Source of the DNA: a virus | DNA length: 64,000 bases | Reading direction: 5' to 3' (one strand) | IMG/VR virus record: IMGVR_UViG_3300042013_000056 | Coordinates: 96,001-160,000 of that record | Shown: positions 4,292-45,701 of the stretch, one piece after another | Numbering within the stretch: position 1 is the stretch's first letter | Layout of the letters: each line of letters starts with the position of its first letter | Made by a program: the position numbers and the translations under genes | Notes under the pieces: generated by a model | What the model was told of the DNA's origin: nothing | Database searches by the model: none | Seen by the model: the letters and a program-made list of their open reading frames with translations, nothing else

Positions 4292-5426
4292 TATCTCTTT
4301 CGAACTCCTTCAAAATATAATCACTGGCATTGCGAATCATCAGTTGTTTAACCTGACTTTCAAAGTCTTTGCCTTGCATGATGCTCATCTGCGCATGGAA
4401 ACCCCATGGTTCAGATGTTGTGTCCCAATATTCTTTGGCTGCAATTGCGTAGGTCTTTCGATCTTCGCCTTGGTGACCGATATGGAACAATTCTACATGG
4501 GTAACAACCCGATTATAAACATTCGAAACAGAAATCTCATATGCATTGATTTTGTCAATAACCAACTGATCACCGGTGAACATGGATTTCAGGTCATCGA
4601 CCTTTTCCATCAGGACCAATTCAATCAAAGCCTTGCTGTTTGATACAGAGTCTTTGTTGCGATGCAAACTCAGATACCAGTCGCCCTTGAGCTTGAAGGG
4701 TACATTGTTTGATGTAATCCCTACACAGCCTTCGGAGCCAACCAGATTCTTGACCGCTTCGACCAGATCACCTTCATATTCGAACTGTTCAACCCAGCAC
4801 CCGAGCAAATCCCACAGTTCCAAGTCTTCGACGATATCAGACCCGTACATAATCCCGGTGTCATTGTCGATCACCGAGAACGCAACCAGAGCTGGTTTTT
4901 CATAACCAACAACGATTCGGTTCCATGGTGCAGTCCATTCGAGATTGACTGTGAAATCCCGTGCTGCAAGGCGTCTCAGATCAGCCAGCAGAGCCGGTTG
5001 GGTCTTGAGCCATGCCATTGCATCATTCGCTTGTTCCGAGCCTGTAGAGCCCTTAGATTTCAAGCGGAGTTCACCATTGGTGTGGATGTAGGTAGACATC
5101 AACGAACCATCTTCCTTGACCATGCACGAATACAAGTCGGTCAAGTCCAAATCCATGGTCATTGGGTTTTCGTTCAGGTTGAAGAATTTCTTCTGTGGTC
5201 GGCAAACCAAATCCACATACGAACCATCACGGCCTACCAGAAACATTGTTCCTCGGCATTCCAATGCACCCGGCAACAGAAAATCTGAGTAAGATGCCAA
5301 CCGATAGTTGAAAATCCTGTACATGGTGTGTTGTTCGTCTGCTGGAAAGTCCTTGAAAAAGAACGCATCCGATTCAGTCAATGCCATAAGGTTTTGATAC
5401 AATTGTTCTGGGGCCACGTTGTTCAT
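4278..5426 (-). CDS. rnlA: RNA ligase 1
   Basis: ECRG, KFFNLNEN, adenylation motif KEDGSL, EGCV, KLKGDWY. Confidence 0.92.
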   Translation of the reverse strand: MNNVAPEQLYQNLMALTESDAFFFKDFPADEQHTMYRIFNYRLASYSDFLLPGALECRGTMFLVGRDGSYVDLVCRPQKKFFNLNENPMTMDLDLTDLYSCMVKEDGSLMSTYIHTNGELRLKSKGSTGSEQANDAMAWLKTQPALLADLRRLAARDFTVNLEWTAPWNRIVVGYEKPALVAFSVIDNDTGIMYGSDIVEDLELWDLLGCWVEQFEYEGDLVEAVKNLVGSEGCVGITSNNVPFKLKGDWYLSLHRNKDSVSNSKALIELVLMEKVDDLKSMFTGDQLVIDKINAYEISVSNVYNRVVTHVELFHIGHQGEDRKTYAIAAKEYWDTTSEPWGFHAQMSIMQGKDFESQVKQLMIRNASDYILKEFERDSAEN

Positions 5427-26625: not shown

Positions 26626-27009
26626 TTAGTGTGAGTTGACAAGAATCTTCAACACATCACGCGCTTTTTTGTATTCACCCAGCTTGATCAAACGGGCTGC
26701 TGTTCGTTCAAGTTCAACGATTGCAGCATCCCTTGGGGTTTCCACCGGCTCGATATTCGCAATCAGTGTCGGTGTACCCAGCTTGATCATGACGTTGCTA
26801 GTGAGGAAACGAAATTTAATATCCGACTGAGAATCAAGCACCAAGTATGACGCTCGACGACCGTTCAGTTCGTAGGTCAGCCAATCGGCTACATCTTTTG
26901 ATTCTTTCAGACTACATCCGGTTTGTTCCCGGAAATCTTTGATCCAATTGATTTTACGATCCGCTACGAACAAGCCGGTTGGGCCGAATGTGGAAACCTT
27001 AAATTTCAT
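26626..27009 (-). CDS. Protein with ribosomal bL12 (L7/L12) C-terminal-like motif
   Basis: KINWIKDFREQTGCSLKESKD matches the bL12 CTD pattern [21 protein letters not shown]. Confidence 0.6.
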   Translation of the reverse strand: MKFKVSTFGPTGLFVADRKINWIKDFREQTGCSLKESKDVADWLTYELNGRRASYLVLDSQSDIKFRFLTSNVMIKLGTPTLIANIEPVETPRDAAIVELERTAARLIKLGEYKKARDVLKILVNSH

Positions 27010-40497: not shown

Positions 40498-40617
40498 AAA
40501 TGGAAAGCACTGTCTCACGACGTTCTCGCCACCGAATACCCAAGGCGCGGGTAATTCGTTTGTCAAGCACCGGTTAACTTGAAGCTTTTGTTCCGGCTGT
40601 GCCTGACTTGTGAATCT

Positions 40618-40650
40618 ACTATAACAGGGTTCTGTTCAATTCTAAACATT
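40618..40650 (-). promoter_or_regulatory. Phage promoter
   Basis: AATGTTTA...TATAGT. Confidence 0.75.
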
Positions 40651-40665
40651 GAAACAGAAATAATT

Positions 40666-41682: not shown

Positions 41683-43080
41683 TTACCAGTCGTAACGCGG
41701 AACGTTCAGAGTGTCCAACATCATAGACAGTGGGGTCACTTCTGGAACATCAGTTGCCGCCAGAATCGATTTCATGATTGCTGGACTGAATCCAGTAACC
41801 ATCGCAGTACCACCAACACCGAAGCTAACTGGCACGTTACCGAAACTGGAGTTCATGTTCCAGAAAATGATGTCCGGGCGTTTGTAGCCAGCGGCTGCAT
41901 ACATACGGTCAATCATTTCGAACGCTGAATCATTTTGGAAACCACGGTCCACGCTATTGAACTGCATGTCAGACCACAACAGAATCTTGGTCGGCATGTC
42001 TTCAACCGGAACTTTGTGTTTCACCGCCGATTTCAGAATCAGTTCGAACGACTTTTGCAGGTTGGTAGAACCACCCCACGGTGCAGATTTTGTCTTGCGA
42101 ACACGTTCGGTCAGTGTCTTGCAGTCCGACAGGTCCACCCATGTAGGGTTACTATCAAACGTGATGAACTGATCCTTGAAGATGCCCTTGGAACGCTCTG
42201 CAACGTAGATACCCAGAGATACCGCCACATCCATACAGGTCAGGCCCGGAGACGCGTTGTAGTTGCTCATAGAGCCCGACACATCGACGATACCAATCAG
42301 GTTCTCTTTCGAGTCTGCAAGGTAATCTGGCAATGCTTTCCACTGCGCATCAGCAACACCCTGAACACCATTCAAACCGCGAATGACATCGTAAGGGAAG
42401 ATCGCACCGGCATTGATGGTGGTTTTGCCTGTAGCAAGACCGTCAACCCATTCTTGGTACGCTTCTGGTGCATTACGCTTGAATGCCTTCTGGTAGTTCT
42501 TCGACGCAACCGATGGAAGCTTGCTGAAATCGATTTCGTTCCACTGCTGGGCACACATCTTCTGTTCAACAGTGTTGGACAGCTTGACGATCATTTTGCG
42601 GTAGTTGCGTTCGGTCAATTCGAACTGATTCATGAAGAACCGAGAATACTTCTTGCCTTCACGCGGCATCCACTTCGCACACAGACCGTTATTGTCAAGC
42701 AGAGCCTGAGCAACGATTTCAGTGATAACGAAGTCCAGTTGCTCACTGATACCGATCAGTTGCCACAGGTCATCCCAACGACCAACTTCCGGGATTTTTG
42801 CGATGATACGCGCTGTGGTGTGAATGTGTTGTTCACGGGCGATTTGCCCCATCAACGAACGGAAAGTCTGACGTTCACCAGCACCACCGCGAATATCACG
42901 AACCCACAACAGTTGACGAACTGCCAAATCGGCATCTTCGTTGTACGCAGCACGGAACTGGCTCGACAGGTCAAGACCACGGGCCGAACCGATCTTGGCG
43001 AACAGATCGACGTTTGCATTGAAGCTGGTTTTCTGTGCAGCCATACCGTTGGTGGTACGAGTCATGTTAGTTTGATTCAT
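41683..43080 (-). CDS. DUF2828-type (TROVE/Ro-related) protein with C-terminal vWA domain
   Basis: TTNG, RDIRGGAGERQTF, GRWDDL, AKWMPRE, MIDAS DVSGSM, WGGSTNLQK, SDMQF, FWNM; start MNQTN at 43080 behind its own promoter. Confidence 0.85.
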   Translation of the reverse strand: MNQTNMTRTTNGMAAQKTSFNANVDLFAKIGSARGLDLSSQFRAAYNEDADLAVRQLLWVRDIRGGAGERQTFRSLMGQIAREQHIHTTARIIAKIPEVGRWDDLWQLIGISEQLDFVITEIVAQALLDNNGLCAKWMPREGKKYSRFFMNQFELTERNYRKMIVKLSNTVEQKMCAQQWNEIDFSKLPSVASKNYQKAFKRNAPEAYQEWVDGLATGKTTINAGAIFPYDVIRGLNGVQGVADAQWKALPDYLADSKENLIGIVDVSGSMSNYNASPGLTCMDVAVSLGIYVAERSKGIFKDQFITFDSNPTWVDLSDCKTLTERVRKTKSAPWGGSTNLQKSFELILKSAVKHKVPVEDMPTKILLWSDMQFNSVDRGFQNDSAFEMIDRMYAAAGYKRPDIIFWNMNSSFGNVPVSFGVGGTAMVTGFSPAIMKSILAATDVPEVTPLSMMLDTLNVPRYDW

Positions 43081-43118
43081 TATGTATTCTCTCACAAGTT
43101 GTTCTGATTTATGTGCCC

Positions 43119-43151
43119 ATCGTAGCATGGTTTGATTCTGTTTTAAACATT
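43119..43151 (-). promoter_or_regulatory. Phage promoter (DUF2828-vWA gene)
   Basis: AATGTTTA...TACGAT. Confidence 0.75.
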
Positions 43152-43184
43152 GGAACAGAATTATTTTCACAAATGTTTAGGCGT

Positions 43185-44698: not shown

Positions 44699-44903
44699 AA
44701 AGGACGGTGTTAAAAGACTTGGTTGGGAATTCTTGCAGGGTTACATAAGACATCCAGCCACCAACTTCGGTGTGGGATACTGTGTAGATAGCGTTCAGTT
44801 CCAGAACTTCGCGAGCGGCTTTGTTTTGTGTTTCATAGCCGCTTCCACCCGGTGTAAAGCGTACTTTCGTACCTGCACGGGCGTAGATATCCATACTACT
44901 CAT
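44670..44903 (-). CDS. Hypothetical protein
   Basis: Probable start MSSMD; the longer ORF overlaps a tRNA. Confidence 0.55.
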   Translation of the reverse strand: MSSMDIYARAGTKVRFTPGGSGYETQNKAAREVLELNAIYTVSHTEVGGWMSYVTLQEFPTKSFNTVLFESVDESSL

Positions 44904-44934
44904 TACGAATTTTTCATTTCTCTTGTTTATAATT

Positions 44935-45012
44935 TGGTGGGCCTTGTCGGACTCGAACCGATCTATCCTTCGCTTATGAGGCGAACGCATTTACCAATTA
45001 TGCTAAAGGCCC
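44935..45012 (-). tRNA. tRNA(CAT), Ile2-like
   Basis: GGGCCT acceptor, TTCGC-CTCATAA-GCGAA, CCA. Confidence 0.88.
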
Positions 45013-45018
45013 GAATGT

Positions 45019-45544
45019 GGTTTGATGGTGTGCTATTACGCCAAAAGAGAGTTATGCCTTACCGTTTCCGGGGTGCCATCCTACTGCCAGTATTGGGTTC
45101 GTCTAACCTGCTTCTGATTGCCGTGACCGGTCAACCCGACATAGTACGAATGATCCAATACCTTGCTCTACTCATTATAAGGTGGCTGCTTCTAAGCCAA
45201 CTTCCCATCAAACCTACGGGTGTTGCGGGTTAATCGCTGGTGTGTTATGACACCAAATGCTCTACGGGTCTTGCATGGCGTTAATGGAACGGTATCTGTA
45301 CTTGCCAGCCTTTTCAGCCCTTATCCGTTTCGGACTGCCATTTTAAGTCGAGGCTTCGCCCTCTAACATAAGACCCAGATCATCTGCATGCACGGATGTC
45401 TATTAGTCTATTACCATACAAATTGCACTTGTTCTTCCCCGGTGGATATACGGATTCAGCTAGGATCGCCTACACACGTTTAAACTTCTGACGGTTCCAC
45501 TCGCAACTCATTAAAGATGGCTACCTTTAAGCCAACTTCCAGCG
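45019..45544 (-). ncRNA. Large structured ncRNA with two 23S rRNA H43/H44 (uL11-binding) mimics
   Basis: GTTGGCTTAGAAGCAGCCACC...GCGTAATAGC and GTTGGCTTAAAGGTAGCCATC...GTGTCATAAC, each closed by a helix; no ORF. Confidence 0.8.
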
Positions 45545-45548
45545 TTTG

Positions 45549-45701
45549 TTACTCTGCCAAATCTGACAGTTTAATAGTCGAAGCGTACTTTATAACGATT
45601 TCAATTTCGTTAAGTTCCAATTCTTCTTCGAGCATTTCCATTGACACAAAACCCGTAGCGTAACCACGGGCAAGTGATTTCAATTCTTCGTTGCTGATCA
45701 A
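45549..45701 (-). CDS. Small acidic hypothetical protein (50 aa)
   Basis: TTG start overlapping the upstream stop; MISNEELKSLARGY...DLAE*. Confidence 0.45.
   Translation of the reverse strand: MISNEELKSLARGYATGFVSMEMLEEELELNEIEIVIKYASTIKLSDLAE

Follow-up and report, generated by a model that had tools for sequence, protein, structure and literature searches.

The window analysed here, a 64-kb stretch comprising bases 96001-160000 of the complete 182.9-kb genome of an uncultured phage (IMG/VR record IMGVR_UViG_3300042013_000056), belongs to a large, Pseudomonas-type phage whose nearest cultured relatives are the Pseudomonas phages Astolliot (Otagovirus) and Milchi, at ~73-79% nucleotide identity; a closer relative, locus L004, has a dNMP kinase 87% identical to that of the window. 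At the upstream end of a minus-strand island, which in the window holds 29 tRNA genes on the same strand, lie two adjacent modules, A and B, that resemble the GTPase-associated centre (GAC) of 23S rRNA. The GAC consists of the top of helix 42 (H42) together with H43 and H44, E. coli 23S nucleotides 1051-1108, and is the 58-mer that binds uL11 and thiostrepton. Our comparative analysis shows A and B to be two non-coding RNA units that are predicted to fold separately and to reproduce the three-dimensional fold of the GAC. The minus-strand sequence of both copies reads as in the initial annotation, which had described a single ~530-nt RNA made of two tandem GAC mimics. The locus is laid out as follows:

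45549-45701, minus strand: conserved 50-aa open reading frame (ORF), with its stop codon 4 nt ahead of module A; kept in Astolliot, Milchi and L004
45235-45544, minus strand: module A, resembling the GAC in its U1072/U1092-A1099 form, with C1095 and an ornate (A-type) insertion of ~250 nt; identified by sequence and covariance model, with homologs in Astolliot and Milchi
45215-45234, minus strand: 20-nt linker between A and B, read from the sequence; unconserved in Astolliot and Milchi
45019-45214, minus strand: module B, a canonical GAC look-alike (C1072, C1092-G1099, A1067, A1095) with a ~127-nt B-type insertion; identified by covariance model and fold, and the sole module in L004
44938-45012, minus strand: tRNA-Met (CAU), 6 nt past module B; Rfam tRNA match

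Module B matched E. coli 23S rRNA at 24/25 nt across H43 (E 6.5e-7) and contained GCGUAAUAGC of H44 exactly, so the claim that this copy keeps the 23S H43 and H44 held. When the 560-nt region was compared with the whole rrn operon, H43 was the only significant match, accompanied by the exact GCGUAAUAGC, and a 45-nt piece of module B matched the 23S gene in 5426/5426 complete E. coli genomes. The elements of the two GAC cores are:

45539-45544, minus strand: module A closing helix, 5′ strand CGCUGG (the equivalent of the H42 top), pairing with CCAGCG at 45235-45240; covaries with AACAGG/CCUGUU in Astolliot and Milchi
45519-45533, minus strand: module A H43 core GGCUUAAAGGUAGCC, with A1067 retained and U at 1072; from the sequence
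45241-45257, minus strand: module A UUUG, H44 (GU-GUCAUA-AC) and ACA, with a U1092-A1099 pair and C at 1095; from the sequence and the triple covariation
45205-45214, minus strand: module B closing helix, 5′ strand GGUUUGAUGG, pairing with CCAUCAAACC at 45019-45028; from sequence, fold and family-wide covariation
45184-45198, minus strand: module B H43 core GGCUUAGAAGCAGCC, identical to 23S; from the sequence match
45029-45049, minus strand: 3′ strand CUCU (45046-45049) of module B helix S1, UUU, then GGCGUAAUAGCACA (H44 with the GUAAUA loop); from the sequence

Both modules contain the H43 hairpin, with its 4-bp top stem and UUAGAAGCAG-type loop, as well as the base stem 1057-59/1079-81, and both retain the U1060-A1088 and 1082/1086 pairs. 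The H44 stem of G-C and C-G pairs and its GUAAUA hexaloop, which includes A1095, are exact in module B, whereas in module A the loop reads GUCAUA and the stem contains a U-A pair. The compensatory C-G to U-A change at 1092-1099 that had been reported for module A was found, together with a C1072 to U change that the initial annotation had not mentioned. The closing helices of the two modules differ in sequence and yet both pair, again as described. The predicted fold of module B was more stable than that of shuffled sequences (minimum free energy [MFE] z = -2.24), and its MFE structure recovered the GAC helices. The modules are not part of a full-length 23S rRNA within an rrn operon and sit instead in the phage tRNA island.

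The two modules belong to a large family. Its 3′ signature GGCGTAATAGCACAC departs from true 23S rRNA, which has GCUCAC at this place, and a scan of IMG/VR with this signature gave at least 118 loci; among the matches listed, 92/118 had an H43-like element 57-397 nt upstream, compared to 29 nt in true rRNA. When this 15-mer was searched for in 596 Gb of cellular genomes, the paired motif was seen in 8/120 cases, most of which lie in dense tRNA arrays and are probably prophages or phage contigs. Unannotated copies were found in the cultured phages Cronobacter GAP32, Xanthomonas XacN1, Ralstonia RSP15, Pseudomonas pf16, Aeromonas 4_4572, Astolliot and Milchi, and similarity in the 5′ half added Serratia BF, several Erwinia phages, Pectobacterium CBB and XbC2. 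The hosts thus span Pseudomonas, Xanthomonas, Ralstonia, enterobacteria and Aeromonas, and Clostridia and Bacteroidales contigs were also represented. In 90 family contexts, every tRNA within 3 kb (264/264) was on the strand of the RNA, while 36/90 contexts had no tRNA within this distance, some of those loci being truncated. The flanking genes differed in every lineage, and a search for a constant protein neighbour found none, the best ORF cluster being present in 7 of ~85 loci. In XacN1 (L149), a gene annotated as a 2′-5′ RNA ligase (2H phosphoesterase type) occupies 233-883, and the GAC RNA follows directly downstream at ~898-1135.

We also examined whether the RNA had been described before. 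With Rfam 15, the window at gathering score gave tRNAs only, and 44900-45700 at E<=10 gave only tRNAs and an antisense tRNA artefact; GOLLD, ROOL, HEARO and the other large or ornate phage RNAs of Rfam did not match the RNA region, which settles in favour of novelty the check that had been proposed against these families. No description of such an RNA was found in the literature searched, including jumbo-phage reviews, or in Rfam 15. The new points are the covarying triple, which proves selection on tertiary structure, the division of the insertions into two subfamilies, the ornate one with an architecture backed by covariation, the heterotypic tandem pair and the list of cultured phages.

Selection on structure was analysed with R1, a covariance model built from 30 viral members unrelated to the window. 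R1 scored module B at 106 bits (approximate E 2.4e-27) and module A at 55 bits (approximate E 2.5e-13, over 45230-45547), with no other match in the 64 kb; the true E. coli GAC scored 51 bits (E 4e-12) and five cultured-phage copies 67-93 bits (E 1.2e-16 to 8.5e-24). By pair counting in the same 30 members, 93.2% of cells were paired compared to 69.6% after shuffling, the covariation score was 0.602 compared to 0.150 (0/500 shuffles reached 0.602, and slid controls gave <=0.18), and compensatory changes were seen in 16/23 pairs. Because whole-module alignment with MAFFT and RNAalifold misaligned the insertions, helix statistics were instead obtained by anchored extraction of 76 unique modules that have both the H43 and the H44-side motifs. 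In this set, the closing helix showed four Watson-Crick pair types at nearly all positions, the positions 1057/1081, 1058/1080 and 1082/1086 exchanged compensatorily, and the 1082/1086 pair was formed in 69/76 modules (UA 30, CG 19, AU 16); across the family, 98-100% of cells in the H43 stems were paired. The nucleotides G1059, U1060, G1071, C1072 and A1077 were invariant, U1060 being present in 76/76, A1088 in 66/76 and an A at 1067 in 67/76. In an unbiased set anchored on H43 only, G1093, U1094, A1095 and A1098 were almost invariant, while 1096 and 1097 were variable.

The clearest evidence for tertiary structure came from the base triple between 1072 and the 1092-1099 pair. C1072 occurred with C1092-G1099 in 76 unique modules and U1072 with U1092-A1099 in 12 (module A of the window, its two homologs, RSP15 and eight IMG/VR lineages), with zero mixed cases (Fisher p 4.9e-15), and the searches for both triple types were able to reveal exceptions. 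In the real GAC this triple reportedly covaries as C(C-G) or U(U-A), an observation attributed to Conn, Gutell and Draper in 1998. Since the triple covaries without exception, the three-dimensional fold is maintained, beyond the hairpins. This pattern of substitution shows a phage-specific, tRNA-linked RNA family that is predicted to preserve the tertiary fold of the GAC as well as the adenines exposed in its loops. The earlier proposal of selection on structure was therefore borne out more strongly than it had been argued, in that covariation across the family extends from the helices to the 1082/1086 pair and to the 1072/(1092-1099) triple, and the search for homologs returned a large family in which H43 and H44 are conserved and the helices covary by pair counting. 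Precise domain ends and compensatory evolution in 88 unique modules likewise uphold the view that this is not a stray rRNA fragment.

Two further observations concern the relation of the family to genuine 23S rRNA. Paenibacillus phage Pd_22F (L153, MZ092003.1 ~83,950-84,050), which serves as a control, has a contiguous Firmicutes-type 23S fragment near the end of its record, either host DNA or a captured piece of rRNA. In four IMG/VR members with short insertions (L095, L066, L025 and L105), the extended flanks are near-identical to real 23S H42 (GACAGCCAGGAUG...CACUGGCCGAG), and judging from these flanks they may be the forms nearest to the rRNA ancestor.

The most conspicuous departure from the ribosomal domain is the insertion. 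Firmicutes-type 23S rRNA reads AAAGAGU|GCGUAAUAGC, whereas the family reads AAAGAGU-[S1 ... S1′]-UUUG-GCGUAAUAGC; an extra domain is thus inserted behind U1090, and the junction becomes four-way instead of three-way. Both insertions of the window begin directly past the U1090 equivalent, in agreement with their earlier placement near A1089, and the S1 helix is UGC/GCA in module A and AGAG/CUCU in module B. Family-wide, S1 covaries, its positions being paired in 72, 65 and 60 of the 76 modules with 5-6 pair types. Insertion sizes range from a ~28-nt bare hairpin to >350 nt. The insertion of module A is organised as follows, all elements being on the minus strand:

45258-45505: whole insertion, from S1 UGC (45503-45505) to GCA (45258-45260); defined from eleven diverse phages, among which S1, Pa, Pb and Pc each change in a compensatory manner
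45496-45500 with 45442-45446: helix Pa, GUGGA with UCCAC
45438-45441 with 45265-45268: helix Pb, CGGG with CCCG, followed by the conserved loop GGGGAAGAACAAGUGCAAU
45414-45421 with 45271-45278: helix Pc, UUGUAUGG with CCAUGCAA
45350-45363: hairpin Pd

This ornate subfamily is common to XacN1, RSP15, GAP32 and several IMG/VR phages (n=11 diverse sequences). Among them, S1 occurs in five pair types, Pa appears as GUGG/CCAC, AACGA/UCGUU, GGAC/GUCC, GAAC/GUUC, GAGC/GCUC or CGUG/CACG, and Pb alternates between CGGG/CCCG and AGGG/CCCU. Pc is an 8-bp long-range helix with 10 different sequences, which forms 8/8 pairs in nine phages and 7/8 in two and lies directly 3′ of a conserved RCARU anchor in 10/11; as a control, when the 3′ strand was shuffled, pairing as good as that observed turned up anywhere in just ~10% of the trials for each sequence. 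The subfamily also shares an invariant purine-rich loop, GGGGAAGRAYAAGYRCAGU, and a GGGC-GNA-GCC hairpin, and in module A the insertion is better conserved than its flanks. Exact-motif scans of IMG/VR for the core of this insertion returned no matches, and its relatives were reached solely via the GAC motifs. Of the long-range pairings proposed in the initial annotation, GGGTCTT/AAGACCC proved wrong: it is unconserved, with AAG falling in Pc, ACCC in Pb and GGGTCTT in a lineage-specific hairpin.

The B-type insertions have a junction element made up of a covarying 3-bp stem, ACC, a 3-bp hairpin with a GAAA or UAAC cap, and UAAG, and a centre that is hypervariable. In module B of the window these parts are:

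45055-45077, minus strand: junction module GGC-ACC-[CCG-GAAA-CGG]-UAAG-GCA, in fixed register in ~21/76 members; the hairpin and outer stem covary
45089-45162, minus strand: variable central domain, tentatively closed by GGUAUUGG (45155-45162) with CCAAUACU (45089-45096) in the MFE fold, with 7/8 pairs kept in L004

We considered two other identities for the insertions and rejected both. A group I intron had been suggested by the resemblance of UAUGGUAAUAG to the Tetrahymena P4-P6 receptor region; there was no RF00028 match at E<=10, UAUGG turned out to form the 5′ half of Pc, all of whose pairs are Watson-Crick, and the helices are nested, S1[Pa, Pb[Pc[...]]]. The insertions were not copied from some other part of rRNA either, the SRL for instance, as neither gave a significant match to 16S, 23S or 5S rRNA. 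The best similarity was 13/14 nt to H97, in the module A insertion at window 45312-45325 (minus strand, GAUAAGGGCUGAAA versus 23S GAUAAGUGCUGAAA), which is at chance level (E 2.4).

Modules A and B differ from one another in triple type, in the H44 loop (GUCAUA versus GUAAUA) and in insertion subfamily. From these comparisons they are members of two old, distinct and widely distributed insertion subfamilies and not recent duplicates, so that the description as tandem mimics stands in the sense of two GAC mimics side by side and fails in the sense of a duplication. Two-module loci were found only four times among the loci collected, namely in the window, Astolliot, Milchi and the unrelated L305 (5124-5710 of IMGVR_UViG_3300042197_004918). 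In Astolliot and Milchi both modules are present, and the closing helix of A is altered on both strands. L004 has module B alone in the same slot. L305 is a 174-kb contig with an array of 19 tRNAs that includes two GAC modules, a tRNA coming directly after each (Pro, Trp); its modules are thus separated by a tRNA, and the second has the rare GUCAUA (C1095) loop seen in module A of the window while the other has A1095. The occurrence of B alone in L004 and of tRNA-separated modules in L305 indicates that A and B are separable units and leaves the single ~530-nt RNA unproven. Since A and B differ at ligand-facing positions (A1095 versus C1095, C- versus U-type triple), they are probably not redundant. 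The pairing of an A1095 with a C1095 module in both independent two-module lineages may be meaningful, although two cases are only suggestive.

The neighbours of the RNA pair are the 50-aa ORF, the tRNA, an RNase H-like gene and the dNMP kinase. The layout with a tRNA after the RNA recurs in L004, Astolliot, Milchi, Aeromonas 4_4572 and L305, and a promoter and terminator scan found no convincing sigma-70-like promoter and no terminator between the ORF, the RNA and the tRNA. In Milchi (L002 2082-2438), an HNH endonuclease gene directly follows the RNA-adjoining tRNA-Met; it is absent from Astolliot and the window. Further downstream, 2 kb from the RNA pair and inside the tRNA/ncRNA island, the window encodes a TROVE/Ro-like protein of 495 aa (41683-43170, minus strand; DUF2828, DUF7788 and VWA, phrog_850 'RNA-binding protein'), which accompanies the GAC RNA in L004 only, that is, at 1/87 family loci. 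The same phage has two RNA ligase genes, of Rnl2 type (PF09414, 64.9 bits) at 2044-2664 and of Rnl1 type (PF09511, 52.8 bits) at 4854-5261, both on the minus strand, which would give it a T4-style capacity for RNA repair. No homolog of uL11, uL10 or RelA/SpoT is encoded by the phage. A 'bL12-like' label for a 127-aa ORF (26626-27009, minus strand) was not established, as it reflects a resemblance of only 27 residues (KINWIKDFREQTGCSLKESKDVAD, in the factor-binding helix region of the bL12 C-terminal domain) that is below threshold (Pfam 18.7 bits versus a cut-off of 25.9, PDB E 0.55). Elsewhere in the genome there was no further GAC module, and the rest of the phage showed no 23S similarity except for an 18-nt match to H93 at window 40509-40526. 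This match is identical to AGAACGUCGUGAGACAGU, a segment of 23S that is universally conserved (blastn E 0.07 versus one rrn operon), and lies within an ORF-free inter-tRNA spacer (40500-40665, minus strand), and by its sequence it may be a second rRNA-fragment look-alike of the same island.

How might such an RNA act? The fourth helix after U1090 is the base of an extra domain grafted on the GAC, and we propose that this domain would serve mainly to brace a GAC fold that is marginally stable outside the ribosome. The modules would be transcribed with the phage tRNA operon, an RNase P cut at the 5′ end of tRNA-Met would free the 3′ end of module B, and the closing helices of 6-10 bp would stabilise the RNAs, which would then work in trans, standing in for the GAC away from the ribosome and capturing a normal ligand of that site. 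The likeliest ligand would be host uL11, an exchangeable ribosomal protein. On ribosomes without L11, RelA activation is blocked. Sequestration of uL11 would consequently leave ribosomes poor at activating RelA and could dampen the stringent response while a prolonged infection makes heavy demands on translation.

The co-orientation of all nearby tRNAs, together with the lack of an evident terminator or promoter in the scan, would fit a stable RNA acting in trans. Because the family has no conserved protein neighbour and the phage encodes neither uL11 nor uL10, the partner is probably a universal host component. The C-terminal domain of L11 contacts the U1060-A1088 pair, and bacterial L11 binds heterologous GAC RNAs (PMC2175356), which fits a mimic whose helices drift freely. 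We ranked uL11 first since the breadth of hosts suits a universal partner, the pair contacted by L11 is retained and heterologous GACs are tolerated; a GAC-directed toxin or defence effector comes second, and an adaptor, a cis role and a neutral remnant are less likely. Alarmone signalling matters to jumbo phages, given that they encode alarmone hydrolases (PMC7824862). On the evidence of conservation, a trans-acting GAC mimic that binds some GAC ligand is quite probable. The assignment of uL11 as the relevant ligand is more tentative and falls somewhat short of an even chance, and the proposal as a whole, a trans-acting decoy that captures uL11, we would put forward with similar reserve.

Several points weigh against this proposal. 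The insertion lies 2 nt from A1088, so that uL11 might be hindered rather than admitted, and titrating uL11 off tens of thousands of ribosomes needs very high levels of the RNA. Moreover, A1067 and A1095 are strongly conserved although they are unneeded for binding of the L11 C-terminal domain, which points to a ligand that reads the loop cleft, such as the L11 N-terminal domain, the factors or an enzyme. Taken by itself, module A gave no signal in the thermodynamic test (z = +0.11), and its structure hence rests on comparison with relatives. The R1 model misses the module A homologs of Astolliot and Milchi, in which the base of H43 has diverged, and its E-values are rough owing to a shortened calibration.

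The conservation of the exposed loop bases A1067 and A1095 would equally suit an anti-defence decoy, in which the RNAs would bind up or block an effector, of host or competitor origin, that attacks the GAC (an ADP-ribosyltransferase or nuclease, for example) and would thereby shield the ribosomes, the C1095 module being a non-modifiable or differently specific bait. This would parallel the phage tRNAs and RNA-repair enzymes that counter tRNA-directed defences: abortive-infection nucleases cleave rRNAs and tRNAs, the RNA sits in tRNA arrays, the island otherwise resembles a kit protecting translation RNAs, the phage encodes both Rnl1 and Rnl2 ligases, and the XacN1 copy adjoins a 2′-5′ RNA ligase gene. 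However, we know of no anti-phage system aimed at the GAC, and spread across phages of several phyla suits a universal partner better than a sporadic defence. A natural toxin, Tre23, does ADP-ribosylate H44 nucleotides 1095-1098 and needs only C1043-C1123 (PMC8661411), which proves that enzymes of this kind exist, although it is an interbacterial T6SS toxin. The joint occurrence of A1095 and C1095 modules in both independent two-module lineages would make sense if they were baits, but there are two independent tandem cases only. Overall we consider a decoy of this kind possible but unlikely. A narrower form, in which A and B are a matched set of decoys for one rRNA domain, their bait loops differing (A1095 and the C-type triple in B, C1095 and the U-type triple in A), and neutralise host immunity effectors disabling the GAC, appears a little less likely still. 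If true, it would be the first RNA anti-defence element to imitate a part of the ribosome and would imply an undiscovered class of GAC-targeting anti-phage systems.

The size range of the insertions, together with subfamilies that have their own covarying helices and an invariant loop and the fact that the module A insertion is more conserved than its flanks, could instead reflect an adaptor, whose GAC part is a docking or folding platform that recruits, for instance, uL10/bL12 or a translational GTPase, and whose variable domain carries a lineage-specific function. However, the shortest members (L109) have a plain hairpin at this site and the common denominator of the family is therefore the GAC; the centres of the B-type insertions are hypervariable, and the insertions match no rRNA region and no Rfam family. 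We regard an adaptor as improbable.

Strict co-orientation with tRNAs, which the RNA often abuts, and its position here 4 nt past an ORF might also point to a cis-acting element of the tRNA operon, either a spacer for processing, folding or stability or a uL11-responsive regulator of the transcript. Since a spacer needs neither a conserved tertiary triple nor conserved exposed loop adenines, and since flanking genes vary by lineage and more than a third of contexts lack a nearby tRNA (the truncated loci included), this seems very unlikely. Finally, a neutral remnant, that is, captured host 23S rDNA interrupted by an intron-like mobile insertion, would account for cores that are clearly 23S-derived, for the extended H42 flanks of the four short-insertion members and for an insertion bounded by U and G as in group I introns, but it is next to impossible to reconcile with the lack of any group I or II match even at E<=10, with insertions that have no ORF, a nested rather than P3/P7-type topology and in some cases too small a size for splicing, with the precise domain ends and compensatory evolution of the family, or with the contiguous Pd_22F fragment, which as a true captured piece continues into flanking 23S.

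Genes for tRNAs, ribosomal proteins and translation factors are familiar from phages, whereas no report of a virus with a free-standing, structurally faithful copy of an rRNA domain was found in the literature searched. No regulatory surface of the large subunit is used more heavily than the GAC, which is the site of uL11, the stalk base, EF-G/EF-Tu docking, RelA activation, thiopeptide action and attack by a known toxin. If true, either of the two roles, control of the stringent response by way of uL11 or decoying of immunity directed at the GAC, would open up a new field in the study of how phages govern translation. Because the family is abundant in large phages, including cultured ones with tractable hosts, the role of a ribosome-free GAC in infected cells is directly testable. 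The family is also a natural set of GAC variants, with four-way junctions, both triple types and loop variants, and may serve studies of RNA folding and of thiopeptides.

Compared to the 23S GAC itself, the phage RNA has the same helices, the UUAGAAGCAG and GUAAUA loops, the 1082/1086 and U1060-A1088 pairs and the 1072/(1092-1099) triple. It differs in being free-standing, phage-encoded, ~100-400 nt long and placed in tRNA arrays rather than the rrn operon, and in the domain after U1090 that creates a four-way junction, in an A1101 in place of U and in the relaxation of 1096 and 1097. Group I introns and 23S intervening sequences share with it a structured insertion in an rRNA helix junction, bounded by U and G; the phage insertion differs from group I introns in that no covariance-model match and no P3/P7 pseudoknot or G-binding core were found, that it can be as short as ~28 nt and that its 'exon' is not a functional rRNA gene. 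The species 1 and 2 RNAs of T4 (rnaC, rnaD) are stable RNAs of unassigned function in the T4 tRNA cluster. Like the phage GAC RNAs, they are small, stable RNAs other than tRNAs that are encoded in a phage tRNA operon and presumably freed by the enzymes that process tRNAs; to our knowledge they have no similarity to the GAC, and we liken them here by description only. The leaders of ribosomal-protein operons (L10, L1, S6:S18) offer a parallel of another kind, as they too are RNAs off the ribosome that imitate a protein-binding site of rRNA; they act in cis, from the 5′ UTR of the gene for the bound protein, and reproduce a local motif, whereas the phage RNA has no ribosomal-protein gene nearby and reproduces a whole tertiary domain. 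The pseudo-ToxI of phage PhiTE, the bacterial Y RNAs and 6S RNA each imitate another nucleic acid and so capture its protein partner (PMC3475682, PMC4201824). These RNAs imitate an antitoxin RNA, a tRNA or promoter DNA, whereas the phage family described here imitates an rRNA domain.

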